Origin: Methanobacteriota archaeon
Lineage (GTDB): Archaea > Thermoplasmatota > Thermoplasmata > SG8-5 > DAIRED01
Assembly (NCBI GenBank): GCA_043799545.1
Contig: JAZDNO010000009.1
Span: 8,262-72,261 of the forward strand
DNA: 64,000 bases
Direction: 5' to 3'
Shown: in pieces, positions 31,314 to 49,965 of the stretch
Position numbering within the stretch: the first letter of the stretch is position 1
How the letters are laid out: each line of letters begins with the position of its first letter
The notes under the pieces: generated by a model
Told to the model about the DNA's origin: nothing
Seen by the model: only the letters and a program-made list of their open reading frames with translations
Databases searched by the model: none
Translations under genes and position numbers: made by a program

Positions 31314-31727
31314 ATGAGGTTTGTAAAGATATCCCGGGAAGAGTTGGGCCGCTCGGCGAAATTATACGAAGGCGTAATGGCCCAGGCTTGCCAGGGACTG
31401 TATTTTCGCGAGGGGCAGATCATAGGCGATGAGCTCGCCAAGCTCGCCGCACGTGACGGGGACGATTATTTCACAGTCATCGGCAAGCTCGTTGTGGGGC
31501 GGGGCTGGGCGGACGAAGCCTCGTTCGACCAGCGGCGCGCGACCTTCAAGGGAAGCATTGAAGCCATCGCGGGGGTGGCGGACGGGTGCCACAAGCTGAG
31601 GGGCATCGTGAAGGCCATCTACGAGGCGAAGCTGAACCGGGCGCTCACCATCATCGAAATGGAATGCGAGGGCCAGGGAGGCAAGAACTGCATTTTTTCG
31701 ATTGAGGGTTTCGGGGACGTTCTCTGA
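31314..31727 (+). CDS. small V4R-domain protein
   Basis: GRGWA, CHKLRGIV, EMECEGQGGKNCIF. Confidence 0.75.
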   Translation: MRFVKISREELGRSAKLYEGVMAQACQGLYFREGQIIGDELAKLAARDGDDYFTVIGKLVVGRGWADEASFDQRRATFKGSIEAIAGVADGCHKLRGIVKAIYEAKLNRALTIIEMECEGQGGKNCIFSIEGFGDVL

Positions 31728-31734
31728 AGGGCCA

Positions 31735-32118
31735 TCAGCCCTTCCGCTCCCAGACCTCTTCCGCCATGTTCTCGTAAACCGAGTCCGCGCTCTCGCTATC
31801 CGGGCCCTTGGCGCATCGGGATTGCTTGGCGAGGGAGATGATGTGGTCCGTCTTGAGTATCCAGTAATGGAGGCGCCACACCTTCCCCTTGCGGAGCGTG
31901 ACCTCCTCCTGCGTGGTGTTGAGCAGGCCCGCCTCCTCCAGCATGTAAAACACGTCGCGGTCACTGGGGGAGAGCCTGTTGTCCACGATGACCGTTTCGA
32001 ATCCGAAAAAGGAGAGGATGTAATCTGTGAGGTTGTCCAGCTCCTCCCCGGACATCCCGTCCTTGCCCACTGTCTGGCTCAGGGCCGCCTTCAAGTCCCT
32101 TCGCGTTACGACGGTGAT
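31735..32118 (-). CDS. DUF6015-like protein; probable ATC start
   Basis: ILSFFGF...IVDNRL...DRDVFYMLEEAGLL...W..HYW; frame is open upstream of TTG 32094 to an ATC preceded by GGAGG. Confidence 0.75.
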   Translation of the reverse strand: MTVVTRRDLKAALSQTVGKDGMSGEELDNLTDYILSFFGFETVIVDNRLSPSDRDVFYMLEEAGLLNTTQEEVTLRKGKVWRLHYWILKTDHIISLAKQSRCAKGPDSESADSVYENMAEEVWERKG

Positions 32119-32254
32119 GGAGCCCCCTCCGGGGGGGTGATTGCGGCGGGCGCAAATAAGTCTATCGGAGGCGGAGAGATGACGGATGGTGAAAGGCCAG
32201 CTAGGACCGGTTTATGACGGATGCGCAACCAGCATATTTCCCCGCCACGGCGGC

Positions 32255-33160
32255 TCAGCGGAACTTCGTCCCCGTTATCCGCTCGAAGAGGTCGACGTAA
32301 ATCCCAGTGACCTTGCCGACTACATCTCCAGGGAGGGGCGGTATGTCCGGCTCGTGAAGGTGGCTCTTCCTGGCCTCCATCAGGGCGTCGTGGTAGCCCG
32401 TCGAGCGGTAATGATGGCGCACGGCCTCCTTGCTGAGCTCCACGGTCTTGCCTTCCCCGTAGAGCTTGAGGTCCCACCAGCGGTCCTCGTCCGCCGTGCC
32501 GAAGGTGTCCACGAGCATCATCTCCCCCTCGGCGTCGATTCCGAACTCCTTCTTGCCGTCCACGTGCAGCAGCCCCTGCGATTTAGCCCGGCGGTTCATC
32601 TCCTTGTCCACCTTAAGGACCATCTGCTTTATCTCATCCAGCCTTTCGCGCCCCAAGCCCGATAGCTCGGAAGCCTCGCGGTGCGTCAGCAGCCGGTCTG
32701 TCTCCTCCAGCTTGGTCGTGAACTCGACGAACGGCTGGGGGAGCTCCGCGCCGTATGCCGGCAACGATGAATTGCCGAAGCCGAGCGCGAGCGGCGAGAG
32801 TTCGCCTGCCTTGAGACGGTCGTGGAGCGAGCCGGCGACGTAATATCTGGCGATGACCTCGAGCGGCACGAGGACGCTGCGGTCGGATTTCTTCAGCGGC
32901 ACTCCCGGCTTGGGAATCGAGACGCGCTTGACACGCATTTTGTTTCCGGCGGGCAGCCCGATGAAGTGGGTCCGCATCCCGAGCCTGGCCGCTTCCTGGA
33001 ACCAGAAGGCCGACGTCCGGCAGAGCGTCTCCCCCTTGTCCGGGATGAGCGTTGGTATCACTTTGTCGAAAACCGAAATCTGGTCCGTGAAATGGAATTC
33101 GAACTCGCTCTCGGACGCCACGTAGACTTCCTTGACCTTGCCTTTTTTATAGAGTTGCAT
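32255..33160 (-). CDS. purC: SAICAR synthetase
   Basis: KGKVKEVY, FTDQISVFD, KGETL, PLEVIARYYVAGSL, FTTK, VDGKKEFG, LSKEAVR. Confidence 0.95.
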   Translation of the reverse strand: MQLYKKGKVKEVYVASESEFEFHFTDQISVFDKVIPTLIPDKGETLCRTSAFWFQEAARLGMRTHFIGLPAGNKMRVKRVSIPKPGVPLKKSDRSVLVPLEVIARYYVAGSLHDRLKAGELSPLALGFGNSSLPAYGAELPQPFVEFTTKLEETDRLLTHREASELSGLGRERLDEIKQMVLKVDKEMNRRAKSQGLLHVDGKKEFGIDAEGEMMLVDTFGTADEDRWWDLKLYGEGKTVELSKEAVRHHYRSTGYHDALMEARKSHLHEPDIPPLPGDVVGKVTGIYVDLFERITGTKFR

Positions 33161-33269
33161 CTGGGTGACCCCAACACGGGTATGCGGTGCCCATTTAAAT
33201 CTTTTCATCTCCTACCACGGGGTGGAGCCATAGTTAATATTTTATCTCACGTTGGCTTTACCCGCGCCA

Positions 33270-34211
33270 ATGGGAACGTTTGACGGCGCTAAGGTTGCGG
33301 TCAACACCTGCATGGGTGTGAGGAAGGGGGAGCGCGTGATGGTGCTCGTGGACCCCACGAAGGAGAGCGTGGGCTCGGCCCTTTTCGAGGCGTCGCTGGA
33401 GGCCGGGGCCGACGCCGTTGTCGTCATGATACCGACCCAGACCCACGACAACCAGGAACTGCCCTTGCCGCTCGCGAGGTTGATGCGGGAGATGGATGTC
33501 GTCTTCGCCGCGACGGAGCGCTCCATCACGCACACGATTGCCAGGCGCGCGGCCTCGAGGGAAGGAGTCCGAGTCGCTTCCATGCCGGGAATCACGGAGG
33601 AGATGCTCCGCGAGGGTGGCATGACCGCGGATTTCAGGGAGATTCATAAGGAGGCGAAGAGGCTTGGCAAGCGTTTCAAGTCCGTCAAGCAGATGCGCCT
33701 GGCGAACGGGTCCGGGACGGACATGATGATGAGCGTGAAAGGCCGCCAGTGGTTCTCTGAGGATACGGGGATTTGCCACAGGCGCGGCGAGTTCACGAAC
33801 CTGCCGGCCGGGGAGCTCTTCGTGTCGCCCGTGGAGGGCACGGCCGAAGGGACCATCGTCATCGACGCAAGCTTCAAAGGGCTCGTGTCCGAGCCGGTGG
33901 AGATCGAGGTCAGCGAAGGCTTCGCGGTCAAGATAAAAGGGGCGACCGACGTTGTGCGTGAGCTCAACAAGGGCGGGCGGGAGGCGCGCAACCTCGCAAA
34001 GATAGGCATAGGCCTCAACCCAAAGGCGCGAATCATAGGAAAAGAGCTGGAGGACTCGAAGGTGCTGGGCGCGGTGTCCTTCGGCCTCGGGGACAGCATG
34101 AGGTTCGGCGGAAGGCTGAAGGCGACCGTCTACATGGAGGCCGTCGCGACGGGCATGACGATGGCTCTCGACAACCAGGTGGTATTGAAAACCGGGAAGC
34201 TAGTGGTCTAA
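33270..34211 (+). CDS. M29 (thermophilic aminopeptidase)-fold protein with degenerate metal ligands
   Basis: RVASMPGIT, GTDM, NLPAGELFVSP, GTIVID, IGIGLNP. Confidence 0.8.
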   Translation: MGTFDGAKVAVNTCMGVRKGERVMVLVDPTKESVGSALFEASLEAGADAVVVMIPTQTHDNQELPLPLARLMREMDVVFAATERSITHTIARRAASREGVRVASMPGITEEMLREGGMTADFREIHKEAKRLGKRFKSVKQMRLANGSGTDMMMSVKGRQWFSEDTGICHRRGEFTNLPAGELFVSPVEGTAEGTIVIDASFKGLVSEPVEIEVSEGFAVKIKGATDVVRELNKGGREARNLAKIGIGLNPKARIIGKELEDSKVLGAVSFGLGDSMRFGGRLKATVYMEAVATGMTMALDNQVVLKTGKLVV

Positions 34212-35230
34212 TCTTCCATCCATCTCGGTTTTCTGATTAAGGCTGCCTCGGTTCCGCATTTCGGGCAGGCCGTTTTCCCAGGTATCTTGTCCGCCAGGTT
34301 AAAGCCCATCCGGGCCAGGAGGAGAGTTCCGCACTCATGGCACACGGTGTTCTCCTGCCCGGTTCTCGAAACATTCCCGACATAGACGTACCTCAGCCCC
34401 TCCTCCTTTGCGATTGCATGAGCCCTCTGCAGTTTCTCGACCGGCGTGTGCCTCAACCCCAGCATCTTGTAGTCGGGATGGAACCTGGAGAAATGCACCG
34501 GAACGTCCGGACCCAGCTCCTCGGCAACCCATCTGGCGAAGAGCCGCAGGTCCTTCTCGTCGTCGTTCTTCGTCGGTATCACCAGGTTTGTCAGTTCTAG
34601 CCATATTCCGAGCGCCTTTGTCAGCCTGCAAGTGTCCAGGACGTTGCCCAGCTTTCCGTTCGTCAGGGTTTGGTAGAACTCGTCCGTGAATGCCTTCACG
34701 TCGATGTTCATGGCGTCGAGGCACGGCGCCAGCTCGCGCAAAGGGGCCTCGGAGATGTAGCCGTTCGTGACGTATATCGTCGGAACGCCGGCCTTTCTGA
34801 GGAGGCGCGATGCGTCGAGTGTGAACTCGTACCACATCGTCGGCTCGTTGTACGTCCAAGAAACGCTCTGGCATCCCTGGCGCGCGACCATCGCCAGTAT
34901 GGCCTCGGCCGAAACTTCGCGGGTCTGGGCGAGAGTCCACTCGTTCGATATCACGTAGTTCTGGCAGAACTGGCATTTCAGGTTGCAGCCGACGCTACCG
35001 AACGAGAGGGTGCGCGTCCCGGGCATGAAGTGGTACAGGGGCTTCTTCTCGATTGGGTCCGGCGAGACGCCCGAATAGCGCCCGTATGTCAGCGCCCACA
35101 GCTTGCCGCCGCGGTTCTGGCGCACTCTGCAAAGCCCGTAGCCCCCGTCGACAATCTTGCATCCGTGGCCGCACAGCGAGCATGCCACCTTCCCCGAACC
35201 GAGCGGGCTCCAGTGAAGGGCTTCCCTCAT
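34208..35230 (-). CDS. AmmeMemoRadiSam system radical SAM enzyme (AmrS/PflX-like)
   Basis: CSLCGHGC, DPIEKKPLYHF, GCNLKCQFCQN, TYNEP, HFSRFHPDY, YVYVGN. Confidence 0.92.
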   Translation of the reverse strand: MREALHWSPLGSGKVACSLCGHGCKIVDGGYGLCRVRQNRGGKLWALTYGRYSGVSPDPIEKKPLYHFMPGTRTLSFGSVGCNLKCQFCQNYVISNEWTLAQTREVSAEAILAMVARQGCQSVSWTYNEPTMWYEFTLDASRLLRKAGVPTIYVTNGYISEAPLRELAPCLDAMNIDVKAFTDEFYQTLTNGKLGNVLDTCRLTKALGIWLELTNLVIPTKNDDEKDLRLFARWVAEELGPDVPVHFSRFHPDYKMLGLRHTPVEKLQRAHAIAKEEGLRYVYVGNVSRTGQENTVCHECGTLLLARMGFNLADKIPGKTACPKCGTEAALIRKPRWMED

Positions 35231-36171
35231 TTCTTTGGCCTCCTGAAATGCTCGAATCCAGATTTGGGCAAGAACTTGGTTCTTCCTCCCTGGGAGAATC
35301 GAACCCCCGTTCCGCACACGCACCCGATTTCCGTGAGCTGGCCGCCCGCCTTGCGGACCTTTGCGTGCGCAACCGCGAGCTTGCCCCGCGGCACCGTGGC
35401 CAGCAATTCGAAATCGCCGCCGTACGACGCCGCTTCGAGCCTCGCGTCCGACCGGACGCCCGGGTAGAACGGAACATCGTCCATTCGAACCTCCATGCCG
35501 ACTCCAGAAGCCTCGGACAAGTAGTGCAACGAAAGCGCCAGGCCGTCCGAGAGGTCTGTGCACGACGTCGCGCCCGCGGAGGCGAGCGCCGCCCCCTCCG
35601 CGAGCCTGGCTTCGACGCGAAGCATCCGTCCCAGGCCGGAGTTACCTCCCTTCAGCATCCATTCGTGCGCCCTTCCGATTCTTCCAGTCAGGACGAGCGC
35701 GTCGCCTTCCCCGGCCCCGGAGCGCATGAGAGCGCCACCTGGAGGCGCCTCGCCCAGAGCCGTGACGCAGATGGTCAACAGGCCCGAGGTCTTGGTATCG
35801 CCCCCCAGCACCTTCGTCCCGTGGGCATTGGCACACCTCTCGACTCCCCCGGATATGCCACCGAATGCTTCGATTGGGGTGTCCGATGGAAAACCGTATG
35901 CGACCAGGAGACCCAGCGGCCTGGCGCCCATCGCGGCCAAGTCGCTCAGGTTGACCGCGGCGGCGTACCAACCCTTCAGGTTCGGGGGTGCGTCGCGGGG
36001 ATAATGCACGCCGTCGAAGGTGATGTCGGTGGTCGCCACCACAGTTTCACTTCCGATTCTCAGGACGGCGCAGTCGTCCCCGATTCCACCCGAGCCGTCG
36101 GGGTCGTGGAGCCTCCGCAGCCTTGCGACCAGGGCCCTCTCGCCGAACCCGGACAGCGCTTTCCCCGCCAT
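35227..36171 (-). CDS. thiL: thiamine-phosphate kinase
   Basis: GIGDDCA, NLSDLAAMGA.P, GGDT, DLSDGL, GGDFELL. Confidence 0.95.
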   Translation of the reverse strand: MAGKALSGFGERALVARLRRLHDPDGSGGIGDDCAVLRIGSETVVATTDITFDGVHYPRDAPPNLKGWYAAAVNLSDLAAMGARPLGLLVAYGFPSDTPIEAFGGISGGVERCANAHGTKVLGGDTKTSGLLTICVTALGEAPPGGALMRSGAGEGDALVLTGRIGRAHEWMLKGGNSGLGRMLRVEARLAEGAALASAGATSCTDLSDGLALSLHYLSEASGVGMEVRMDDVPFYPGVRSDARLEAASYGGDFELLATVPRGKLAVAHAKVRKAGGQLTEIGCVCGTGVRFSQGGRTKFLPKSGFEHFRRPKK

Positions 36172-36412
36172 ACACCCTCATCGCATCATGCCAATTAAAC
36201 ATTTCCTGGTTTGCCCGGGCATCAAGAGTTTGCCGTGCGTGGAGCGTTTCGCGGTTCACGCTCGTTGAATTCCCTTGCGATGCGGGACGCTCACAAGTAG
36301 CAACTAATATAGATTTCTATGAACTATATTTAAATATTACCTAGCAATGACAGAGTCTTGCGCCGAGGTGGGGCGCGGAGAGTAAAATACCAATGTTTAA
36401 GGGAGGTGTAAA

Positions 36413-36943
36413 ATGGGTAAGTATAAGTTTATTACAGTTGCCACAACGATGTTTTGCGTTGCAATGATGATATTGCCAGCAGCGACTCCGGCGAAGGCCT
36501 ACGTGCTGGAATACGGGCAGGACAAATTCACAATCGACGGAACCATGAAGTGCAGGAACGCTCAGGTTGCGATTTCGATGGAGTATGTGTTCCAATCCCT
36601 TCCGGCTCAGACGTCAGTACTGGTCGGAAACGTGGAGTACATCCTCACGCTCGAAAACGTCATCTTCGGCGTGGATGACCCGAGCACGGCGATATACGAT
36701 CCAGCGAGCATAACCTTCAACTTCGGACGCAACGGACGCTTACAAGGGCATGTCGAGGGCATTGCATTATACGTCCAGCCATCCCCGGACTATCCGGCTG
36801 GATGGGTGCCAGTCATCGGATACGGCCTCGTCGATTTCAGCGGCATCCTAAAGATTTCAGGAAACAATTATTCGCCGCTTAAGCTCGATGGCTGGTATAC
36901 GACCATGTCATACTGGCCAGGTTCTGGCCCGGACCCTGCATAA
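36413..36943 (+). CDS. hypothetical secreted beta-rich protein
   Basis: signal-peptide-like N-terminus, GGAGG RBS, visibly lower GC than neighbours. Confidence 0.7.
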   Translation: MGKYKFITVATTMFCVAMMILPAATPAKAYVLEYGQDKFTIDGTMKCRNAQVAISMEYVFQSLPAQTSVLVGNVEYILTLENVIFGVDDPSTAIYDPASITFNFGRNGRLQGHVEGIALYVQPSPDYPAGWVPVIGYGLVDFSGILKISGNNYSPLKLDGWYTTMSYWPGSGPDPA

Positions 36944-37000
36944 CCGCAGTGCAATGGCGGGACAAAACCATTTTATCTTCTTTTTATATCCATGCATCCC

Positions 37001-37960
37001 ATGAGCGTGCAGAAATACTCATTCCCCGGCAGCAACCCGTTCGTGCAAGCCCCTATGAGCGGCATCACAGACAGAGCCTTCCGCACAATAGCCAGACGTT
37101 TCCATCGTGGTTTGATTTACACCGAGATGATAAGCGCCGAAGCGCTCTGCCGAGGAGACCGCAAGACGCTCAGAATGGCCGTCATTGATGAGGAGCATAA
37201 ACCCTGCGCCCTCCAGCTCATCGGCCCCAGGCCAGACCGCCTTGCAGAGGCGGCCCGCATCGCCGAGGGGCTGGGGGCCGAAATCATCGATATAAATGCC
37301 GCCTGCCCCGAGCCAAAGGTCGTGAAGGCAGGAGCCGGGGGAGCCCTCATGAAAGACCTGGGCAAGCTGGACAAGGCCGTGCGGGCGGTCGTCGACACGG
37401 CAGGCGTTCCAGTGTCCGTCAAGCTTCGCCTCGGATACGACAGGGACGTTTCCTCCGATGCGCTGGCCCTCGTTGCGGAAGCTGGCGCGGCCTACTCGAC
37501 TTTCCACGGAAGGTTGGTCTCTCAGGGGTTCACGGGAAAATCTGACTGGAACGCCTTGAAAAGGCTCGCGGGCGAGGCGAGGATGCCGTTCCTGGCGAAC
37601 GGGGACGCGCGAAACGAGGCGTCGGCCGTCGAGCTGCTGCGTTTCACCGGAGCGACTGGTGTCATGCTGGGCCGCGCGACGAGGGGCAGGCCGGACCTGC
37701 CTGGAGCGGCGTTCGATGTGCTGGAGGGCCGGCCTACCAAGAGGCTGCTGGGCGACGCACTGGCCTTCACCATCCTAGACCACGCGAAACTCCTGGTTGA
37801 GGAGCGGGGCGAGCACAGGGGGATTTGCAGGATGAGAAAGCACATCCACTGGTACCTGGCATCCGCGGGGGCGAAGTTCGAGAAGGAGAGGGTTCATCGA
37901 ATCGAGACCGTCGCGGAGCTGGAAAGGTTCCTCGATGATGTTGAATGGCGGAATCAATGA
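37001..37960 (+). CDS. dus: tRNA-dihydrouridine synthase (DusB-like)
   Basis: QAPMSGITD, TEMIS, INAACP, SVKLRLG, HGR, ANGD, GVMLGRA, RKHIHWY. Confidence 0.93.
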   Translation: MSVQKYSFPGSNPFVQAPMSGITDRAFRTIARRFHRGLIYTEMISAEALCRGDRKTLRMAVIDEEHKPCALQLIGPRPDRLAEAARIAEGLGAEIIDINAACPEPKVVKAGAGGALMKDLGKLDKAVRAVVDTAGVPVSVKLRLGYDRDVSSDALALVAEAGAAYSTFHGRLVSQGFTGKSDWNALKRLAGEARMPFLANGDARNEASAVELLRFTGATGVMLGRATRGRPDLPGAAFDVLEGRPTKRLLGDALAFTILDHAKLLVEERGEHRGICRMRKHIHWYLASAGAKFEKERVHRIETVAELERFLDDVEWRNQ

Positions 37961-38003
37961 TGGATGCGCAAGGTCTAACTCGGTGCGTTTCTGCCTAGCC
38001 ACA

Positions 38004-39266
38004 CTAACAATCGCAATCGTCGCTGGGGCTTTCGGACCTGAGTTTCTCTGGATAATCGCCCAGAATCCCCAGCAACCGCGATGCATCCCGCCAGATGCCG
38101 CGGACGAAGGAGCGCTCGCCCAGGCTCCACCTTTCCAAGTTCTGATTTGTGAGCGAGGCCAGCTTCTCAAGCTCCCCCAGCGCCATATCCGTCCGCAGGT
38201 CGTTTTCCAGATGCCCCAGCAGGAGCGCCCATAACTCTCCCGCTTTGTCCGGTCCCTTGGCACAGGGATGAATCCCGTCGGCCTCCGCCGAGGACGCGAG
38301 CGCGCGCCAGGAGTCCCTGATGAGGCCGAAGCGCGACGCAGCCGCGGCCATCGCATCGTCTGTGAAGTGCGTCTGTTCCCGGTAATGGCTCTGAAGGAGG
38401 AAGAACCTCACGGTTTCGCCCCCGAAGCGCCTGAAAAGGTCGCTCAGCTCGACCCTCACGCCTTTGGATTTCGAGAGCTTCTGCCCTTCGAACGTCACGT
38501 GCCCGTTGTGCATCCAGAAGCGGGACATGGGCCGGTCCAGCACCGCGCGGGCCATCAGCATCTCGGATTCGTGGTGCGGGAAGACCAGGTCCACGCCGCC
38601 CGTGTATATGTCGATGGGAGGACCGAGGTGCTTCTCCACGAAGGCGAAATCCTGAACGTGCCAGCCAGGCCGCCCTGGCCCCCAGGGACTTTCCCAAGAC
38701 AGGCGTCCGCTCGGCGCGGGTTCCCAAAGCGCGAAGTCCAGCGGGCTCTCTTTCGCCCCGGCAAGGTCTGCGTCGTGCGGCACGAGAGAATCTTCCAGAG
38801 GATGGCGCAGCAAACATCCGAAATCCTCTTTCCTCGCCCTGAGGTAGACCGCTTGCCCCCGCACGTAGGCCTTCCCGCTTGCCACTAGCATCTCCGCGAC
38901 CGAGATAATCTCTTGTATGTGCTCGGAGACCTTGGGCCTGAGTTCCGGGGGCATTATGTTCAGCAGGGCCATGTCGCGCTCGAAAGCCTTCTCGCAGCGC
39001 TCTGCCAGCTGCAACTCAGTCAACCCCTTGGCTGCGGACTTTCGAGCCGTCTCGTCTGAAACGTCCGTATAGTTCACGACGTGCTTGACTTCGAATCCCT
39101 CGTGGACCAGCATCCTTCGTGTCAGGTCCGCCGCCAGGTACGATTTCCCGTGCCCGAGGTGAACCCTGGCGTAGACGGTCGGGCCGCAGGTGAACATCTT
39201 CACCAGTCCGTCGGGGACCTCGAAAGGTTCCACCCGGCCGGTCATCGAGTTGAACAGGCTCAGCAT
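38004..39266 (-). CDS. CysRS paralog (class I aaRS-like ligase) without anticodon-binding tail
   Basis: TCGPTVY..VHLGH, NYTDV, DFALW, GRPGWHVQD, FPHHESE, KLSKSKG; ends after the DALR-like helices. Confidence 0.9.
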   Translation of the reverse strand: MLSLFNSMTGRVEPFEVPDGLVKMFTCGPTVYARVHLGHGKSYLAADLTRRMLVHEGFEVKHVVNYTDVSDETARKSAAKGLTELQLAERCEKAFERDMALLNIMPPELRPKVSEHIQEIISVAEMLVASGKAYVRGQAVYLRARKEDFGCLLRHPLEDSLVPHDADLAGAKESPLDFALWEPAPSGRLSWESPWGPGRPGWHVQDFAFVEKHLGPPIDIYTGGVDLVFPHHESEMLMARAVLDRPMSRFWMHNGHVTFEGQKLSKSKGVRVELSDLFRRFGGETVRFFLLQSHYREQTHFTDDAMAAAASRFGLIRDSWRALASSAEADGIHPCAKGPDKAGELWALLLGHLENDLRTDMALGELEKLASLTNQNLERWSLGERSFVRGIWRDASRLLGILGDYPEKLRSESPSDDCDC

Positions 39267-39267
39267 C

Positions 39268-40107
39268 TCATCCTTTCTCCAGCCCGCACAGGGCCAGCAT
39301 CCTCTCATCCAGCGGAACGGGTTTCGAGCCGTACGCCATCTCCATCGTTTTGAAGAGCGGCCTGAACCCGAGCCGTCCGACCGCGCTGCAGGCCGTGCGG
39401 TTCGCCTCCGGAATCGAGACCCAGACCTCCGAGCCGGCCTCGACCTTCCCCAGGAGCGCGTCCATCAGGACAAGCCCCTGCCCCCCCTTGGATGCCCACG
39501 GCCCGGCTTCGTAACCAGTGCGCTCCGAGCCGCGCGCGTACAGATAGCCTTCCACGGCGTCCCCGTCGACGCTCGCAAGGGCCAGCTCGGGAAATTCCCC
39601 CCGGAGTGATTTCAACATCCTTGTGCGGTCGGCTCGAAAGAGCCTCGCATCGAGTGAGTGAATTTCCTTGGCCAGCTTGTCGTCGACGTTGACGATCCCA
39701 TGCCCGCGGCACGTTATGCCGGCCTTGCCGCTCATCGTCACGAAGGCATCCCCCTTATGAAATCCGAGCCTCTCGTAGAACGGGACGACGCCCTCGTACG
39801 AGTACAAACGGATGTCCGTCGCGCCAGCGCCCTTCAGGTGCTGGATGCATGCGTTCGTCAGAGCCCGGCCGACACCAACCCTGCGGTGCCTGGAATCCAC
39901 GACAACGTTGCCTATGATGCCCGTTGCGCCGAAAGCCATGGCTGTGGCGAAGCCTTTCGGAACCCCGTCTTCCTCGCTCGCGAAGAATCCCCCGGGAAAC
40001 AGTCGGAGCAGCCGCTCAGCGTCCGCGGCCTCGTAGCTCCATCCGGCGGCGTTGGCAAGCGCCACGAAGATGTCTATATCCCCGTCCTCCAGATTGCGCA
40101 CAGTCAT
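39268..40107 (-). CDS. two-domain GNAT acetyltransferase
   Basis: GNVVVDSRHRRVGVG motif A, FYERLGF, second domain with ADRTRML and AGPW. Confidence 0.9.
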   Translation of the reverse strand: MTVRNLEDGDIDIFVALANAAGWSYEAADAERLLRLFPGGFFASEEDGVPKGFATAMAFGATGIIGNVVVDSRHRRVGVGRALTNACIQHLKGAGATDIRLYSYEGVVPFYERLGFHKGDAFVTMSGKAGITCRGHGIVNVDDKLAKEIHSLDARLFRADRTRMLKSLRGEFPELALASVDGDAVEGYLYARGSERTGYEAGPWASKGGQGLVLMDALLGKVEAGSEVWVSIPEANRTACSAVGRLGFRPLFKTMEMAYGSKPVPLDERMLALCGLEKG

Positions 40108-40263
40108 TCAAACACCCTTGACAGTCGGTTCGTCGCAGTCGTGATGGCCGTGGGTTATGTACGCTTTCTCCCCGCGCTGCATCTTCACCTGGCACGGGCC
40201 GAAACCGAAATCTTCCCCGCCGTACCAGAAGGCGCACTCCTTGCAGCGAAGACCTTTGGCCAT
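40108..40263 (-). CDS. 51-aa Cys/His-rich protein
   Basis: MAKGLRCKECAFWYGGEDFGFGPCQVKMQRGEKAYITHGHHDCDEPTVKGV; its TGA directly abuts the GNAT ATG. Confidence 0.7.
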   Translation of the reverse strand: MAKGLRCKECAFWYGGEDFGFGPCQVKMQRGEKAYITHGHHDCDEPTVKGV

Positions 40264-40286
40264 CAGTTGGGATACGAATTGCGGGA

Positions 40287-40295
40287 TACAAATAA
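40287..40295 (-). promoter_or_regulatory. weak TATA-like element for the small-protein/GNAT/CysRS-paralog unit
   Basis: TTATTTGTA about 24 nt upstream of ATG 40263 (leaderless spacing); GGGATAC direct repeat at 40269 and 40283. Confidence 0.35.
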
Positions 40296-40339
40296 CTATT
40301 CCCCTGCCGCCAGCAATCTCACCGTGCGCGGGGCCTGCG

Positions 40340-41890
40340 TCACAGATGCGAGGCCGGGACAACGTTGCCTGCGTTCAAAATCCGCCGGGGGTCGAGCGCC
40401 TTCTTGACCGAAGCGATTTCCTCCATCCCCTTCCGCCCGTACATCAGCTCGATGTACGGCGTAGGCTTTCCGCGGACATCCAGAACCTTCTTTCCCATCC
40501 CGTGCTCCCCCGAAAGCGTGCCCCCGAGGGATACAGCACGCTCCGCCAGCCCGACGTAGAGATTCTTCGCCATGGCAAGCTCTTCCGCGTTCTCGCTGAT
40601 GAAGTTGAAATGGAGGTGGCAGTCTCCCGCATGCCCGAAGAGGACGAAATGCGCCCCCGGCCTCGGAAACGCCTTGCTGAACGCCGCTCCAGCGCTGCTG
40701 TAAGCTTCCATCATCTCCCCGAACCGGCCATCGGGAACGGCCATGTCCGTGCCCATCTTGTGGCTCCGGCGCTCGCGGAGGTAGGCGTTCACCCTGTCCG
40801 GCAGGGAGTGACGGAACTCCTTGAGCCCCCTGACGTCGCGCTCGTTGTTGGCGCACCAGTCCTCTGTCGAACCCAGCTCGCGCAGCCTCTTTTCGATAGG
40901 CGCGAGCGAGCTGGGCTCCCCGCACGCCATCTCGAAGAATATCGCTCCCCCGGCGCCTTCCGGGACTTCCGGGTTCTCCTCGCGGATGAAACCGAGCGAA
41001 TTCTCGTCGAAGTACTCCACCGAGAGAATCCCCTCCGCGCGCATGGGCCTCAGCCAGTCGGCGAACCTCATTGCCGAGTCACCCGTCCTGAAGAAAGCGA
41101 TGTCGGAGGCTATGCCACCGGGCTTCGGCGCGAGACGCAATTCCACCTGGGATATTGCACCGAGGATGCCCTCGCTTCCCACGAAGAGGTCCACGAGGTC
41201 CATCCCCGGTTTGGAGTACAGCCCGGCGTTGTGCTTGACCGCTGGCATTTTGTAAGTCGGGATACCGAACCTGTACCGGTTGCCCTGCTCCGAGCGGAAG
41301 TCGAAGTATCCGTCGGGGCTGGCGCAGATTTTCCCCCGCTTGACGCCGAGCGTATCACCGTTGGTCAACACGACCCTCAAACCCTGGACCCATTCCCTCG
41401 TCGCGCCATAATTGAAGCATCTGGCCCCCGAAGCGTTCGTGGCGACCGTGCCCCCGACCTGAGCGGATGTCTCCGTCGGGTCTGGAGGATAAATCGCGGT
41501 CTTCGGCAGGGCTCCCGTCAACTCGAGCAGCGGGATGCCGGGCGGAACAACTGCCCTGAGCCCAGAGCGGTCGAGCAGGAACGACGAAGGCCCGGCCAGC
41601 CCAAGATATTCCACGCGCTCGAAGCCGTCCCGAGCTTCGATGCGGACCATCTCCGCCATCGAGACGACGAGCCCGCCTGACTTGGGCACGCGCGCCCCGG
41701 TCACGCCCGTCCCCGCGCCCGAAACCGTCACCTTCTTCTTTTGAAGGCTGGCATCGCGCAGGATCTCTGCCAGCTCGCTCTCGCTCGCTGGGAAATAGAC
41801 CGCTTCCACTGAACCCGGTTCGGCGTAGTGGGCGTTGCTCTCGTCGGTCAGGAATTCCTCGAACGCTTCGGAAGAGGTCTCGACGCGCAT
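40340..41890 (-). CDS. FAD-binding oxidoreductase (GlcD/D-lactate dehydrogenase family)
   Basis: SGAGTGVTG, PPDPT...QVGGTVATNASG, FVGSEGILG, GHAGDCHLH, SGEHGMGK, LNAG. Confidence 0.92.
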   Translation of the reverse strand: MRVETSSEAFEEFLTDESNAHYAEPGSVEAVYFPASESELAEILRDASLQKKKVTVSGAGTGVTGARVPKSGGLVVSMAEMVRIEARDGFERVEYLGLAGPSSFLLDRSGLRAVVPPGIPLLELTGALPKTAIYPPDPTETSAQVGGTVATNASGARCFNYGATREWVQGLRVVLTNGDTLGVKRGKICASPDGYFDFRSEQGNRYRFGIPTYKMPAVKHNAGLYSKPGMDLVDLFVGSEGILGAISQVELRLAPKPGGIASDIAFFRTGDSAMRFADWLRPMRAEGILSVEYFDENSLGFIREENPEVPEGAGGAIFFEMACGEPSSLAPIEKRLRELGSTEDWCANNERDVRGLKEFRHSLPDRVNAYLRERRSHKMGTDMAVPDGRFGEMMEAYSSAGAAFSKAFPRPGAHFVLFGHAGDCHLHFNFISENAEELAMAKNLYVGLAERAVSLGGTLSGEHGMGKKVLDVRGKPTPYIELMYGRKGMEEIASVKKALDPRRILNAGNVVPASHL

Positions 41891-41984
41891 CGGTCGGAGG
41901 AGAGCCCCCAAAGTAAAAACCTTTTCCGTTGATATGCGTGGAAATTATTATTATGGCTCAGTAATATGCCATTGTCAGTCATGT

Positions 41985-42193
41985 GCCGAGGTAACTAAGC
42001 CCGGTTTACGCCTGACGAGCAAGCTCGTCCGCGCCTCGTGGCTTCGCCACTTCGGAGGTGCCAGCCTGGCACTAAAACCTTTTATATGCCTAGGTAACTA
42101 AGCCCGGTTTACGCTGGACGAGCTGCGCTCGTCCGCGCCTCGTGGCTTCGCCACTTCGGAGGTGCCAGCTACTGGCACTAAAACCTTTGATAC
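41985..42193 (+). repeat. two tandem 103/106-nt repeats made of the tRNA-Ser(TGA) 5' half with a 47-48 nt insert
   Basis: units 41985..42087 and 42088..42193: GCC(G/T)AGGTAACTAAGCCCGGTTTA + insert + AGGTGCCAGC + TGGCACTAAAACCTTT. Confidence 0.9.
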
Positions 42194-42308
42194 GCCGAGG
42201 TAACTAAGCCCGGTTTAAGGTGCCAGCCTTGAGTGCGCCAGAAAAAGAACTGGTGCCTGGCGAGCTGGTGGTGTCATCACCTCGGGAGTTCGAATCTCCC
42301 CCTCGGCG
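42194..42308 (+). tRNA. tRNA-Ser(TGA) with 29-nt intron at 37/38 (42234..42262)
   Basis: acceptor GCCGAGG/CCTCGGC, anticodon stem CCAGC/GCTGG, loop CT-TGA-G^A, variable arm GGTG/CACC, T arm GGGAG-TTCGAAT-CTCCC; intron stem GCGCCAG/CTGGTGC gives a relaxed BHB. Confidence 0.93.
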
Positions 42309-42332
42309 CTACACTTTTTTATCGCTTTCAAT

Positions 42333-42443
42333 CGCGCCGAGGGGAGACTAATCTTTGCTGGTAGTAAGTAATAACCGATTAATCTTACCCTCAGAGACAC
42401 ACCAAATCCACGTTGCTAGTCTCTTCGGTCTCCCCCTCGGCGC
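42333..42443 (+). repeat. downstream inverted-repeat element ending in a 15-bp copy of the tRNA 3' end
   Basis: CGCGCCGAGGGGAGACTAATC... TAGTCTCTTCGG, then TCTCCCCCTCGGCGC (42429..42443 = 42295..42309). Confidence 0.75.
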
Positions 42444-42502
42444 ATCATGTTGCTTCTCCGTCAGCCGTTAATCTTTTATCCCCTCGCGGCGTAAGGGGAA
42501 AC

Positions 42503-43273
42503 ATGACCGATTTGAAGGATTTGGACGTGAGCACGAGCATGAAGGAGACCGTCAGGCTCATCAACGTTGCGCTGGATTCGCTCAACGCCAACGCGCTCGC
42601 CGGCAAGCCATCGGCGCTCTCGGCGGCTGAGAAGGGGACGGTGGACGTGGTGAAAAAGAAGCTCCTGGAAGTAGAGGAGGCGTTCTGGCGCCCGCTCGAT
42701 TCCCCGGAGACGTTCGAGAGGCTGGCCAAAGTGGCCGCTTCCATCGGAGACGGTGACCTGATTAAGTACTGCCAGAAGCAGAAGAACATGGTAATCGGCA
42801 CAGAGATACATTTCAAGGGCTACTGCCAGCTGTTCTACGGCAACGCCAAGGAGGCCGTCGTGCACCTAAAGAAGGCCGTGGAGCTGGCGCCCGACCTGGA
42901 CGTGGCCCCGAAGGACTACGAGACCGCGGTGAAGCGCGTGGCCAAGGCCGAAAAGGACCTGCCCGCCATCAACAGGATGATGTCGACGAAGGGTGAGACT
43001 GCGGAGCTATTGCAGAAGAAGGCCGTCGCGCTCATGGCTTTGGGCAACGTCGACGAGGCGATTCCGCTCTTCGACAAGGTCATCAAGCTCGAACCGACGA
43101 ACCCGGAGGCGTGGGGGAAGCGCGGGACCGCGCTGGAGAGCCTGGGCAAGTTCGACGAGGCGGTTCCGTACCTGAGCAAGGCGCTCGCCCTGAAGCCGAC
43201 GTCGATAACGGCAAAGAGGGGGCTCGGCCTTGCGACCTTCTGGACCAAGGGCGGGGAGAAGCCGGTAGATTAG
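42503..43273 (+). CDS. TPR-repeat protein
   Basis: KKAVALMALG..DEAIPLFDKVIKLEP, AWGKRGTALESLG..DEAV. Confidence 0.85.
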   Translation: MTDLKDLDVSTSMKETVRLINVALDSLNANALAGKPSALSAAEKGTVDVVKKKLLEVEEAFWRPLDSPETFERLAKVAASIGDGDLIKYCQKQKNMVIGTEIHFKGYCQLFYGNAKEAVVHLKKAVELAPDLDVAPKDYETAVKRVAKAEKDLPAINRMMSTKGETAELLQKKAVALMALGNVDEAIPLFDKVIKLEPTNPEAWGKRGTALESLGKFDEAVPYLSKALALKPTSITAKRGLGLATFWTKGGEKPVD

Positions 43274-43307
43274 AACCGTTAGGCCAGATGTTGTCTGAAT
43301 ATTCGAG

Positions 43308-44717
43308 GTGAACGGCGTGGCACTCAAGGTACACAACACTATGACCGGCGAGCTGGAAGAGTTCGCTCCAGTGAATCCCGGGCGGGCGGGGATGTACGTC
43401 TGCGGCATCAACACGTACGACAACAGCCACATGGGCCACGCGAAGTCGGCGGTCATGTTCGACGTCGTGCGCAGGCACATAGAGCGCAGGGGGTTCGCAG
43501 TCAAATACGTCGTCAACTTCACGGACGTGGAAGACCACTGCATACAGCGGGCGAACGAGCTGGGCATCACGATTCACGACCTCGCGAAGACCTACATTGC
43601 GGAATATTTCAAGGACATGAGGGCGCTGGGCGTCCGCGACGCGGACGTTTATCCAATCGCGACGGAGCACATCCCTGAGATGATTGCGGGAATCCAGAAG
43701 CTCATCGAAAACGGCCACGCCTACGAGGCCGCTGGCTCCGTGTATTTCAGCGTGAGGAGGGCTGAGGAGTACGGCAAGCTCTCGCACCAGACCCTGGAGG
43801 ACATGCAATCCTCGGGGAGAGTTGAAATCGAGGAGGGGAAGCGCGACCCCATGGACTTCGCGCTCTGGAAGGCCTGGAAGGAGGGGGAGCCTTCGTGGGA
43901 TTCGCCTTGGGGGAAGGGACGCCCTGGCTGGCACATCGAATGCAGCGTGATGTCCATGAAATATCTCGGCGAGACCCTGGACGTCCACGGCGGCGGAAAC
44001 GAGCTCATCTTCCCGCACCACGAGAACGAGAGGCTCCAGTCCGAAGCGCTCACTGGAAAGCCATTCTCCAAGTACTGGCTCCACGGCGGGATGCTGATGA
44101 TTGATGGCGAGGAGATGCACAAGTCCAAGGGCAACTTCTTCACTATCAAGGACGTTCTCAAGCTCTACGAGCCAGGCGTGATACGCTTCTTCCTACTGAA
44201 CACCCACTACCGCAAGCCGATAGACTACAGCGCGAGGGCGCTGGACGAGGCAAAGCAGTCCCTGGCGAGGCTGCGCTCGGTGGGCGAGAGGCTGGAGGGC
44301 GCAAAGACCGCCGCGCATCCGAACCAGGAGCTATGGGAGCGCGTGAAGAAAGCGCGTGCGGACTTCGAGGCGTCGATGGACGAGGACTTCAACACGCGCG
44401 GGGCAATCTCTGCCGTTTTCGAGGTGTCCAGGGAGCTGAACAAGGCGCTGGACGAGGGGAAGCTGTGCGTGATGGCCAAGAACGAGGCGCTATCGCTCTT
44501 CGGAGAATTCGAGAAACTCTTCGGAGTGCTGGCGCGGGGTAAAGATGAGGCCGCAGACGACCCGCAGTCGCCGGAGGTACAAAGGCTTGTCGATGAGCGC
44601 GAGGCCGCGAGGAAGCGCAGGGACTTCAAGGCCGCAGACGCGATACGCGACAGGCTTAAGGCGATGGGAATCATTGTCGAGGACGCTCCAGAGGGCACGA
44701 AATGGAAGAGAGCATAG
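43308..44717 (+). CDS. cysS: cysteine--tRNA ligase (canonical)
   Basis: VCG...HMGH, GRPGWHIECS, DVHGGG, FPHHENE, MHKSKGN, C-terminal ARKRRDFKAADAIRDRL...IVED. Confidence 0.97.
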   Translation: MNGVALKVHNTMTGELEEFAPVNPGRAGMYVCGINTYDNSHMGHAKSAVMFDVVRRHIERRGFAVKYVVNFTDVEDHCIQRANELGITIHDLAKTYIAEYFKDMRALGVRDADVYPIATEHIPEMIAGIQKLIENGHAYEAAGSVYFSVRRAEEYGKLSHQTLEDMQSSGRVEIEEGKRDPMDFALWKAWKEGEPSWDSPWGKGRPGWHIECSVMSMKYLGETLDVHGGGNELIFPHHENERLQSEALTGKPFSKYWLHGGMLMIDGEEMHKSKGNFFTIKDVLKLYEPGVIRFFLLNTHYRKPIDYSARALDEAKQSLARLRSVGERLEGAKTAAHPNQELWERVKKARADFEASMDEDFNTRGAISAVFEVSRELNKALDEGKLCVMAKNEALSLFGEFEKLFGVLARGKDEAADDPQSPEVQRLVDEREAARKRRDFKAADAIRDRLKAMGIIVEDAPEGTKWKRA

Positions 44718-45727
44718 CATTTCTAAAGGCGCGGATACTTTCCCTTGGCGAGGTGTTCGTGGAACCAGGATGCGAGCTGCCGAGGACGTTCAGCAGGTCC
44801 ACCGCCGGACCTGGCGCGGGCGGGCGCTCGCTCGCCTTCTCGTTCCGCGGCACCAAGGTGAAGCTCTCCATCACGTCTGACGAGAGGTCGCCCCTCCACC
44901 TGACCCGCGAGGGCTCGTTCGTGGCTGGCGGCCAGGAGTTCCCAGGCCGGGTGCGAGTGGTGCCGATTCTCCTGCATTGCCCGGAGCAGGCGTTCGTCAA
45001 CGTCGAGGCCGGATGTTCGAAGGGCTGCGCGTTCTGCGCGACGCCCCTGACGCCGCAGGCTGTCGCGTCGAAGCTCACCGAGAACCGCGTCGTCGGTATG
45101 GTGCTGGCCGCAGCAAAGGAGCCCAGCTTCAAGGCCGTCGCAGTGACTGGCGGCGTCACGGAGGACCCGCAGAATTCGCTGGACCGGATGCTGGACGTCG
45201 TGAAGCGCGTGAGGGAGGCGCTGCCAACGGTGCCAATCGGGGTCGAGCCCTACGTCGAGAGCCCGGACGGGGTGGACGAGCTTCGCGAGGCTGGTGCGGA
45301 CGAGATGAAAATCAACATCGAGGCTGCGACCGGAGCCATCTCCGCGAAGGCATGCCCGGGCAGGAACCGCGATGCCGCGCTCGCTGGGCTTGAGAGGGCC
45401 GTGAAAACGTTCGGCAGGGGTATGGTGACATCCAACCTCATTTTCGGGCTGGGCGAGTCCGAAGCTGAACTTGAGGAATGCGTTGGAATGCTGGCAGCGA
45501 TGGGAGTCGTCCCCAACCTCAGGGCGCTGCGCGTCGATGCCGGCAACCGCTGGAGGCTGCGCGAGGCGCTCGGGTTCTCGCCGAGCACGCCGTCGGCGAA
45601 GAGGATGATGGAGGTCGCGCGGATGCACAAGGCGGTTCTGGAGCGGAACGGCCTGACGACGCTCACGTTCAAGACGATGTGCTTCCCTTGCGGCTGCTGC
45701 GACATCGTTCCGTTCAGGGACGTTTGA
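44702..45727 (+). CDS. radical SAM protein, biotin synthase-related
   Basis: HCPEQAF, GCSKGCAFC, KINIE, SNLIFGLGE, C-terminal CFPCGCCD. Confidence 0.85.
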   Translation: MEESIAFLKARILSLGEVFVEPGCELPRTFSRSTAGPGAGGRSLAFSFRGTKVKLSITSDERSPLHLTREGSFVAGGQEFPGRVRVVPILLHCPEQAFVNVEAGCSKGCAFCATPLTPQAVASKLTENRVVGMVLAAAKEPSFKAVAVTGGVTEDPQNSLDRMLDVVKRVREALPTVPIGVEPYVESPDGVDELREAGADEMKINIEAATGAISAKACPGRNRDAALAGLERAVKTFGRGMVTSNLIFGLGESEAELEECVGMLAAMGVVPNLRALRVDAGNRWRLREALGFSPSTPSAKRMMEVARMHKAVLERNGLTTLTFKTMCFPCGCCDIVPFRDV

Positions 45728-45775
45728 GGGAAAGGGACGGGCTATCCACGAAGATGAACGACATAACCCTCAGCC

Positions 45776-47302
45776 TTACCAATCCACCGTCCAGACTGTA
45801 TCAGCAGGAACGTGGACCCAGTACCCTCTCCCAGGTTTCATTACGTAACTAGGCCCGACTGTCGTGGTCATGTACGGAGCGCCAGCGTCGAAGACTTCGA
45901 CTATGTCGGCGCTCGTGCCCCAGAAAGCAGTCGCAACGGTCACGCCCGCCGCAAGGGTCGGGTAGCCGACGAGGTTCCAGCCAGCTCGAAGTTGTATCTG
46001 TGTGGAAGGTGCCATTAATCCAGATACATTTAAGTAGCCGTCACCGACGAGCCCAATATAAATCCAAAACCCCATATATGGCTCGACGCGCGTCAGGTCA
46101 TTTAATGACGGATTCCAAAACGGATTATATTGCTTCCAATGATCCTGCATGTCAGCAGAGTCGTACCACATTACTCGGTCAAAGTAGGTGTCGCCGTCCA
46201 TAAGTTGCGTGTAAAGGTTGAAAGTTGGGATTTCCATCGGGACTGAGATGAGGTTCCAGCCGGTAACAACAGGGATTTTAATATATTGCGGCAGAGGAGC
46301 CCCCCACGGTTGCATTATAGGATATCTGTCTCGGGCGCCAGCACCTCCCAGGATGTTCAAATAGGGCGTATCGCCAATGCCGTCGCAGCCTGGTATGGAC
46401 TGATCGAATCCTCTGCAATAATCCACCCCGCTGTAATCGCCCCAGTAATTGCCGCCGGAGGGGTAACCGTTATCCCATTGATTGGTACCATATCCGTATG
46501 CTTGATTGCTGGTGAAGTTGTTGTGATAGATTGTATTGCCAGAACTTGATTCGTAAACGTATATGTCGATATCGTTATTTGAGACATTGTTGTTGAAAAC
46601 AATATTGCTGGAAGAATCGATTGAGATTCCGACGTTGTTGTTTGTGACTATGTTATCAGAAATTATATTGCCATTGGAGTAGTATACGGCGATGCCAATC
46701 GCCCCGTTCCCAGAAACAGAGTTATATGAGATTGTGTTACTGTCAGACCCGGAAAGAGATATGCTCGATGCGACGTTATTATTAATGATGTTGCCGTTGG
46801 ATTCGTCGATATGGATATCAATATAATTGTTCAGGAATGTATTGTTAGCGATTTTATTACTATTAGAATAGAGAAAGTGTATGCCGTAGCTATTACTTGA
46901 GAGGCTATTATTATCAATTTTACCATTCTGGACACCATAGAAAGTTAAGCCCACATCAAAAAACCACGGCCAGTTATCGGTCCCATACGCATCGTGCAGA
47001 TATAAGTTTCTTATAACAAAGTTATTGGTTGTATTACCAATATATATACAATAACCATATCCATTCCCATTGATCTCCCAGTTCTCGATAATCCACGGAT
47101 TAGATGCGTTTCCTGACCCTCCTGAGACGCCGTGCGCCACGTCGAAATCCGCATTCGAGTTTATCCGTATTGGCGCATGCGACACATACGATGTCACGTT
47201 CCCAATATTTCTCGCCTCCGACTCACCCGATGGCTCTATAAAGATTAAAGCACTCGATAGTATCACCAGCAAACTCAACACTAGCGACACACCTTTTCGC
47301 AA
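45776..47302 (-). CDS. secreted NosD/CASH parallel beta-helix protein with conserved C-terminal domain
   Basis: signal peptide, HAPIRI module, GI.L..S..N.I.NN repeats, GGNYW module, GWNL..P x2 tail; probable TTG start after AGAGG. Confidence 0.88.
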   Translation of the reverse strand: MRKGVSLVLSLLVILSSALIFIEPSGESEARNIGNVTSYVSHAPIRINSNADFDVAHGVSGGSGNASNPWIIENWEINGNGYGYCIYIGNTTNNFVIRNLYLHDAYGTDNWPWFFDVGLTFYGVQNGKIDNNSLSSNSYGIHFLYSNSNKIANNTFLNNYIDIHIDESNGNIINNNVASSISLSGSDSNTISYNSVSGNGAIGIAVYYSNGNIISDNIVTNNNVGISIDSSSNIVFNNNVSNNDIDIYVYESSSGNTIYHNNFTSNQAYGYGTNQWDNGYPSGGNYWGDYSGVDYCRGFDQSIPGCDGIGDTPYLNILGGAGARDRYPIMQPWGAPLPQYIKIPVVTGWNLISVPMEIPTFNLYTQLMDGDTYFDRVMWYDSADMQDHWKQYNPFWNPSLNDLTRVEPYMGFWIYIGLVGDGYLNVSGLMAPSTQIQLRAGWNLVGYPTLAAGVTVATAFWGTSADIVEVFDAGAPYMTTTVGPSYVMKPGRGYWVHVPADTVWTVDW

Positions 47303-49962: not shown

Positions 49963-49965
49963 GGC

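Follow-up and report, generated by a model that had tools for sequence, protein, structure and literature searches.

A four-cysteine mini-protein, a tandem GNAT and a short CysRS-like ligase form a predicted operon conserved in Thermoplasmatota

We investigated three adjacent genes in a 64,000-nucleotide stretch of DNA (here called the window) from a Methanobacteriota archaeon of the GTDB lineage Archaea; Thermoplasmatota; Thermoplasmata; SG8-5; DAIRED01 (GenBank assembly GCA_043799545.1, contig JAZDNO010000009.1, positions 8,262 to 72,261 of the forward strand). These genes encode a four-Cys mini-protein (S), a two-domain acetyltransferase of the Gcn5-related N-acetyltransferase (GNAT) superfamily (G) and a protein resembling cysteinyl-tRNA synthetase (CysRS), termed C. 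Judged by gene order, spacing and comparison across genomes, the three genes make up a single predicted operon and functional module, which is old and occurs widely in Thermoplasmatota. Our tentative preference is that C acts as a tRNA-independent cysteine ligase and G as an N-acetyltransferase, both working around S, which may itself be the acceptor. What is new is the tight association, across an archaeal phylum, of a CysRS-derived enzyme with a tandem GNAT and a four-Cys mini-protein that has no annotation; our literature search found no paper on an archaeal CysRS paralog with a GNAT, nor on an S-G-C system.

The marks of an operon that can be read from sequence are all present, namely a single strand, minimal gaps, one upstream promoter and a conserved gene order. 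An earlier interpretation made from the letters of the window (the sequence-only reading) had described three co-oriented genes separated by 0 to 1 nt, and the gene boundaries on the minus strand bear this out, with 0 nt between S and G and 1 nt between G and C. The starts of S at 40263 and of C at 39266 were supported by orthologue alignments, in which the orthologues begin with MAKGL (S) or ML(S/K)LFN (C), the latter aligning to residue 1 of E. coli CysRS. Longer mechanical versions of the open reading frames (ORFs), of 84 aa from TTG 40362 and of 434 aa from ATG 39308, were disfavoured by the same alignments. Pairwise ratios of nonsynonymous to synonymous substitutions (dN/dS) against five orthologues were 0.08-0.29 for S, 0.11-0.51 for G and 0.14-0.44 for C, a pattern indicating that purifying selection acts on all three genes. 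By these ratios, S is a genuine gene and C is not decaying. The TATA-like element pointed out in the sequence-only reading (AGTTATTTGTA, 40297-40287) was kept at a distance of about 30-35 nt 5' of the ATG of S in each of the six orthologous loci, whatever gene adjoins upstream. This conserved promoter element sits before S only, and the predicted transcript, starting at S, would be leaderless or have a short leader. The same reading had noted a direct repeat of GGGATAC (GTATCCC on the minus strand); both copies are there, at 40289-40283 and 40275-40269, but just the second recurs, as GTATCC, and in the closest relatives only. No match in or adjoining the operon was obtained with Rfam (36000-45000) or ARAGORN (30000-50000).

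Some 25 loci, drawn from 10 or more Thermoplasmatota families, show the S-G-C order. Within the clade of the window, it was found at every locus with enough flank (L001/L002, L003, L004, L010-12, L016, which is cut, L070 and L005/L006), and at L005/L006 the trio lies in a wholly different neighbourhood, with a convergent thioredoxin gene downstream. One lineage (P0190; 10 members, 6 contigs read) encodes a fusion protein, with S preceding G at its N-terminus; directly downstream comes the gene for a short CysRS of 405 aa whose zinc site is intact. The order was also kept in 9 of the 10 S loci fetched from other classes of the phylum, the tenth (f38) carrying S-G only. In family f11, G is followed by a divergent ligase that keeps C209 (E. 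coli CysRS numbering, here and below) but has the replacements T68S, H206N and E238A. Tandem-GNAT homologues were present in 109 of the 401 sampled genomes of the class; in family f7, a distant GNAT homologue occurs with neither S nor C. The sequence-only reading had made its proposal depend on the GNAT and the CysRS paralog being linked and co-distributed in other genomes, and had named gene-neighbourhood analysis as one check. Run across genomes, this analysis found the two genes linked in the loci counted above and co-distributed, the S-G-C order recurring more widely than that reading had guessed.

Co-distribution was assessed in 121 class genomes of at least 90% completeness and in 118 genomes from the other classes of the phylum; as related genomes are not independent, the counts describe family-level patterns and are not statistics. 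In the class, the genomes with S and those with a second, short CysRS-like gene are one and the same set of 41; the remaining 80 lack both, and a full-length CysRS was present in every one of the 121. The positive genomes belong to families f1, f11, f13, f17, f22, f23, f25 and f29, and the negatives come from 15 families; the 41 include one unpublished genome (G109, f13), and leaving it out gives 40/40. Within the order of the window, S and the second CysRS-like gene were restricted to the window's own family. Among 22 S-positive genomes of the other classes, 19 had two CysRS-like genes, one had the short gene only, adjoining S, and two (f38) had S and G with a single long CysRS. Two CysRS-like hits were also obtained in eight S-negative genomes of these classes, five of them from f47. 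Genomes with a short CysRS almost always have a long one too, the exceptions being G456 (89% complete) and G402. The short CysRS type (about 405 aa) was seen in about a third of the Thermoplasmatota genomes (G000-G523), often adjoining S6e/aIF2-gamma (L008/L009).

Table 1. Coordinates of the S-G-C genes and of other features of the window, counted from its first letter
Feature	Position	Strand	Details
S	40263-40108	minus	51 aa; ATG 40263, stop TGA 40110-40108
G	40107-39268	minus	279 aa; ATG 40107, stop TGA 39270-39268
C	39266-38004	minus	420 aa, CysRS-like; ATG 39266
Q205-D206 codons of C	38649..38654	minus	replace E208-C209 (zinc ligand) of E. coli CysRS
C-terminal tail of C	38007..38066	minus	DYPExLR-x5-DDCxC, ends in CxC motif
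Promoter-like region	40269..40300	minus	purine-rich stretch, TATA-like AGTTATTTGTA, two GTATCCC copies
FAD-linked oxidase (GlcD-like)	40340..41911	minus	Pfam FAD_binding_4 and FAD-oxidase_C
Housekeeping CysRS	43308..44717	plus	469 aa; TIGR00435 522.5 bits; DALR_2 and CysS_C; EC zinc site intact

Because S co-occurs with a short CysRS-like gene in 41/41 genomes, is fused to G in one lineage and is found with G only in f38 and with C only in f13, we read it as the predicted hub, or common denominator, of the system and not as a side-note to the two enzymes. Its cysteines are spaced CxxC-x13-C-x18-C within a core motif WYGxED..GPC..K..R....T.G..CDE. Over 40 sequences, C7, C10, W13, G15, C24, T37 and D44 are invariant, and Y14, E17, D18, G22, K27, R30, G39, C43 and E45 are at least 90% conserved, so that three of the four cysteines belong to the first group and C43 to the second. 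A profile search gathered the family into 49 representative clusters. S has no membership in a Pfam or NCBIfam family, a sequence search against the PDB returned nothing even at E=10, and the Protein Atlas gave unnamed archaeal clusters only. Against the Pfam family HIPIP (PF01355; high-potential iron-sulfur protein, HiPIP), S scored 17.9 bits (E=0.0038), below the gathering score of 22 bits. With the AlphaFold2 (AF2) model of S (pLDDT 66), nearly all ranked Foldseek rows and 7 of the 7 VIA-align rows shown were HiPIP or HiPIP-like small subunits, the matches being weak in both cases (E>0.5 and Z 2.3-3.5, respectively). S resembles HiPIP, and also the small HiPIP-like subunits that accompany glycyl-radical enzymes (2y8n_B, 9o8u), in four-Cys spacing, small size and a putative role as an accessory subunit, whereas the partner enzymes are unrelated and every match stays weak (sub-threshold in Pfam, Z of at most 3.5, modest model confidence). 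By this weak but consistent evidence, S looks like a HiPIP-type four-Cys metalloprotein, and the modelling makes a [4Fe-4S] or other metal site likely. Some S homologues (P0149, P0152, P0160 and P0171) have long Arg/Lys-rich C-terminal tails, as in RNA- or ribosome-binding proteins.

C is made up of catalytic and helical domains. The only Pfam domain found in it was tRNA-synt_1e (PF01406, E=2.7e-86); unlike the 469-aa CysRS of the window, C gave no Pfam match to DALR_2 or CysS_C. These two proteins share 33% identity, and no third protein of the genome is a strong PF01406 hit. Against the CysRS equivalog TIGR00435, C reached 310 bits, below the cut-off of 340. Mapping of its residues onto E. 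coli CysRS (L041) showed that the HIGH (HLGH) and KMSKS (KLSKS) motifs as well as C28, T68, W205, H234 and E238 are kept. Three of the four zinc ligands (C28, H234 and E238) are thereby retained, and C209 is changed to Asp. The double replacement E208Q/C209D (QD) was found in 9/9 members of the window's clade, versus EC in 116/116 other CysRS hits. This clade is small, with members at 46-79% identity followed by a drop to at most 42% in a collection of 5.8 billion proteins; it is monophyletic, sits on a long stem (0.63-0.69) and branches inside the short archaeal CysRS type, away from the long CysRS of the genome. Proteins of the short type, about 405 aa long and also without an anticodon domain, all end at an LG(L/I/V)L helix. 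In the window's clade, the DDCxC tail was seen wherever the C-terminus is complete, with the sole exception of P0008, the most divergent member, and it was absent from all other short CysRS types. The tail might serve as a swinging thiol or as a metal contact. Together with the QD site, it may tune the use of metal or substrate in this clade. An isoelectric-point comparison, used as a proxy for tRNA binding, was uninformative, and the idea that C is a cysteine persulfide synthase, based on the pyridoxal phosphate lysines of the KIIK motif, was dropped as this motif is unconserved in C and in the canonical archaeal enzyme.

The sequence-only reading had referred to a C209D paralog; this change is not shared by the trio ligases at large. 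Ligases of the trio mostly keep C28/E208-C209/H234/E238, with E238 replaced in three lineages (by Ala, Ser or Gly), and QD occurs among them in the window's clade only. Since C209D is clade-specific and QD is also seen in the apparently sole, full-length CysRS of an Aenigmatarchaeote, the replacement alone is no sign of a new substrate. The metal-site change is best described, from these alignments, as a putative local variation on an old module.

G combines Acetyltransf_1 (PF00583, 48.8 bits against a gathering score of 20.7) with Acetyltransf_18 (PF18014, 41.2 against 22.7), which predicts a GNAT-superfamily protein of the YitH-HolE type. Its acetyl-CoA motif, R75-x-x-G78-x-G80-x-A82, lies in the N-terminal, canonical GNAT domain, with R75 and G80 conserved in at least 90% of 30 homologues. 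The AF2 model (pLDDT 94) was a tandem GNAT, with its best structural match in 3ddd (TM-score 0.81), a putative acetyltransferase of Pyrococcus horikoshii. This YitH/HolE-type protein with PF18014 shares the two-domain architecture of G, whereas the identity is 18% and no S or C partner is known for it. The matches after 3DDD were glucosamine N-acetyltransferase, VipF, Eis and MshD; for MshD (1ozp/2c27), the TM-score was 0.59-0.64 with E of about 1e-10, and many other tandem GNATs ranked above it.

A degenerate DNA pattern for SPWGxGRPGW(H/Q)xQD, scanned on species-representative genomes and metagenomes, gave 26 loci, those of Thermoplasmatota among them. The short QD paralogs of Nitrososphaerota were 389-418 aa long, and a long CysRS was present alongside in 3 of the 4 genomes checked. 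In a high-GC group (L054, L056, L065 and L072), the QD paralog is overlapped downstream by the gene for a 259-aa GNAT that is unrelated to G. These GNATs are 35-70% identical to each other, and their catalytic domain is C-terminal. This link to an unrelated GNAT at four loci provides independent support for the pairing of ligase and GNAT. Each of the four paralogs has just one or two cysteines; ORFs upstream of the paralog of L054 were rejected as wrong-frame artefacts. A low-GC group (Nitrososphaeria) showed a block of a divergent 98-aa ORF of no family, the QD paralog and a convergent gene for a 139-aa thioredoxin in at least 16 loci (L055, L057-L064, L066-L069, L071 and L075-L077). In this block, E238 of the paralog is often also replaced, by Leu or Ile, and a phosphofructokinase gene lies beyond the 98-aa ORF. 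S was not found in the Nitrososphaerota or Aenigmatarchaeota genomes with QD enzymes. In trees, the QD group of Nitrososphaerota and Aenigmatarchaeota was sister to the short group of Thermoplasmatota. Approximately unbiased (AU) tests rejected a single origin neither for QD (p=0.23) nor for the two GNAT-linked groups of Thermoplasmata (p=0.56); because they reject neither one origin nor several, we make no claim of convergence.

Mycothiol is made by the CysRS-like ligase MshC followed by the tandem-GNAT acetyltransferase MshD, in which the C-terminal domain is the active one. The sequence-only reading had compared the trio to this pair. The resemblance of two enzymes stood, since MshC/MshD of Actinobacteria likewise comprise a CysRS-derived ligase without an anticodon-binding domain and a tandem GNAT, with predicted ATP-dependent cysteine ligation and then N-acetylation. 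However, both proteins fell below the family cut-offs: C reached 216.6 bits against the MshC model TIGR03447 (cut-off 485.1), and G reached 23.2 bits, from motif A only, against the MshD model TIGR03448 (cut-off 163.1). In the PDB, C matched MshC (3c8z/8hfm) with E=4e-51 and CysRS with E=1e-75. Further differences from MshC/MshD are the branching of C within the archaeal short CysRS, the N-terminal position of the acetyl-CoA motif of G, S having no counterpart, and C209D in the window's clade. Genes of the MshA or MshB type were not found in the operon; MshA was not searched for elsewhere. PIG-L genes (MshB/BshB-like) occurred in 17 of the 121 class genomes, in a patchy manner that did not match the pattern of S and C.

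In the reading that we tentatively prefer, C, as a descendant of CysRS, would be an ATP-dependent, adenylate-forming amino-acid ligase that passes the residue to a non-tRNA acceptor. The amino acid would most likely be L-cysteine, because the cysteine/zinc site is kept in most ligases of the trio. Using acetyl-CoA, G would then N-acetylate an amine of the same substrate, giving a net reaction of "ligate, then N-acetylate" as in MshC/MshD. S would be a HiPIP-like partner of both enzymes, either an Fe-S or metal subunit or adaptor, or else a carrier or acceptor, and we rate these two roles roughly equal. A small-molecule acceptor, leading to a thiol-type cofactor, fits the thioredoxin neighbours, and S as the acceptor fits its hub position and its fusion to G. 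The ligate-then-acylate pathway put forward in the sequence-only reading thus remains the best chemistry for the trio. What the analysis shows is the anatomy of the operon, its conservation and co-distribution, its domain content and its active-site residues; of the mechanism, we infer which amino acid and which acceptor are used, that tRNA is dispensable, which of the two steps comes first, and that S has an Fe-S cluster. Because the module is kept across much of the phylum yet figures in no paper found, "attach an amino acid, then acetylate" is here probably chemistry as yet undescribed. Paralogs of aminoacyl-tRNA synthetases (aaRS) outside translation (MshC, PoxA, GluQRS and the amino acid:carrier-protein ligases) have each revealed new chemistry. 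To our knowledge, next to nothing has been established about the low-molecular-weight thiols of Thermoplasmatota, and a cysteine ligase with an N-acetyltransferase is an obvious candidate route to such a thiol; the alternative, aminoacylation of a small protein, would if true be a new modification.

Several observations weigh against this preferred reading. The short type as a whole inherited its lack of an anticodon domain from its ancestor, and this lack is therefore by itself no proof of tRNA independence. A 469-aa QD enzyme with DALR_2 and CysS_C is the only CysRS hit in the 0.9-Mb genome of an Aenigmatarchaeota metagenome-assembled genome (L078:655-2064), and QD alone therefore does not prove that cysteine or tRNA function has been lost. 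Families f13, with S and C, where a tandem-GNAT orthologue was not found among hits that were generic GNAT domains only, and f38, with S and G and no second CysRS, indicate that the coupling of ligation to acetylation is not obligatory. Among the neighbours of the trio, there is no conserved gene of the "acceptor-making" kind, such as one for a glycosyltransferase or a deacetylase. In families f17, f22, f23, f25 and f29, the order is aIF5B, S and G with no CysRS-like gene nearby, and the short CysRS of these genomes lies elsewhere, for example adjoining S6e/aIF2-gamma. Similarly in f11, S is upstream of G in genus g25 and precedes aIF1A-Rio1-KH-Pus10 in genus g15. Such a neighbourhood of initiation-factor and ribosomal genes, for S as for the short CysRS, also fits a translation-linked role. 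This role is a serious rival, although we hold it to be unlikely. In this case C, perhaps with S binding RNA in trans, would be a second, specialized CysRS (of ancestral archaeal type, or a backup under stress or metal limitation) or would act on tRNA, and G would regulate C by lysine acetylation or acetylate aminoacyl-tRNA. The retention of all catalytic motifs in C, the basic tails of some S proteins and the apparently sole QD CysRS of that one DPANN genome argue in the same direction, and the change from Cys to Asp would make the zinc site less prone to oxidation, in keeping with the thioredoxin neighbours. However, nearly all genomes with a short CysRS already have a long one, the clade of C has a long stem and a score under the CysRS equivalog cut-off, one zinc ligand has been lost repeatedly (C209D; E238A/S/G), and a plain synthetase leaves unexplained the recurrent linkage to GNATs, including an unrelated one in another phylum.

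S could also be the substrate itself, which is a sub-case of the hub model that overlaps our preferred reading and differs in the acceptor. PoxA, a LysRS paralog, aminoacylates EF-P, and in a similar manner C would aminoacylate S, for example at Lys27, or load it as a carrier in the way of the SerRS-like amino acid:carrier-protein ligases, with G acetylating the attached residue or S. We regard this as possible though doubtful. It agrees with the strict co-occurrence of S and C, with the presence of S beside both enzymes or either one, with its fusion to G in the manner of a carrier domain, with the conservation of K27 and R30, and with the very basic C-terminal tails of several homologues sited among initiation-factor genes. 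Conversely, the four cysteines probably bind a metal or cluster rather than serve as acceptors, the C-terminus of S is unconserved and S thus cannot be a LysW-type carrier, and the QD paralogs of Nitrososphaerota have no detectable S. A more elaborate version, which we consider improbable, would place cysteine on the near-invariant Lys of a HiPIP-like Fe-S protein S and cap it by the GNAT, yielding a protein-bound N-acetylcysteinyl thiol next to a metal cluster. Given the position of S behind aIF5B or ahead of aIF1A, this modified protein might act at the ribosome or in the initiation of translation. If true, EF-P lysylation would have a class I counterpart, and archaea a post-translational modification not known before. 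A true pathway of the mycothiol or bacillithiol type, with C as MshC, G as MshD and a GlcN-based N-acetylcysteinyl thiol as product, is very improbable. The two-enzyme logic, the weak TIGR03447 and TIGR03448 matches, the MshD-like tandem-GNAT fold and one PIG-L gene in G000 speak for it; against it, both scores lie so far under the family cut-offs that membership of C and G is close to refuted, C is nearer to CysRS than to MshC, the acetyl-CoA motif is N-terminal in G while the C-terminal domain is the active one in MshD, and PIG-L is not co-distributed with the trio. In addition, a review reports no MshC homologue in archaea by InterPro (Rawat and Maupin-Furlow, PMC7278568). Archaeal genomes are compact and gene overlaps in them are common, and S, G and C could on these grounds be adjacent by chance or C be a decaying duplicate. 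This we find scarcely credible, and the comparative data refute it for practical purposes: the order is kept in the many loci across classes, the co-distribution is strict, S and G are fused in one lineage, and C combines intact catalytic motifs with the low dN/dS values given above.

Other known systems resemble the trio in part. PoxA (GenX/EpmA) is a synthetase paralog without an anticodon domain that is co-inherited, often in one operon, with a small protein of the translation neighbourhood. However, PoxA is a class II LysRS paralog and EF-P a tRNA-shaped factor, whereas C is class I and CysRS-like and S is a 45-aa four-Cys domain. Other aaRS paralogs were predicted to be peptide or amide ligases beside GNATs (Aravind et al. 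2010, PMC2922099). These neighbourhoods of MetRS paralogs and GNATs, as well as the SerRS-like amino acid:carrier-protein ligases, are similar to the trio in using aaRS paralogs for non-ribosomal ligation with small partners or GNATs alongside; they differ in being bacterial and derived from other aaRS families, and their carriers bear phosphopantetheine, for which S has no such motif.

Upstream of S, the sequence-only reading had left open whether the FAD-linked oxidase belongs to the operon. Its stop codon (TGA 40342-40340) is separated from S by a spacer of 76 nt. The oxidase gene was present upstream in the window, L003, L010-12, L016 and L070 and absent in L001/L002/L004/L005, in which its place upstream is taken by tRNA-Ser or other genes. 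By this comparison it is an optional neighbour and lies outside the module. An intact tRNA-Ser(TGA) gene was found in orthologous loci, about 100 nt upstream of S in L001 and L004, and in L003 the oxidase gene is inserted between tRNA-Ser(TGA) and S; ARAGORN detected no tRNA in the window between 30000 and 50000. Downstream, a convergent Dus gene ends 43 nt past C. At one locus (L033:6109-8400, minus strand), an intein (Intein_splicing match) is encoded within the aIF5B gene that lies upstream of S, and the product is 763 aa long versus about 590 aa elsewhere. The housekeeping CysRS of the window groups with the bacterial-type long CysRS, apart from the archaeal short type, and has EMHKS for KMSKS (first Lys to Glu and Ser to His), as do its orthologues in L001, L003 and L004.

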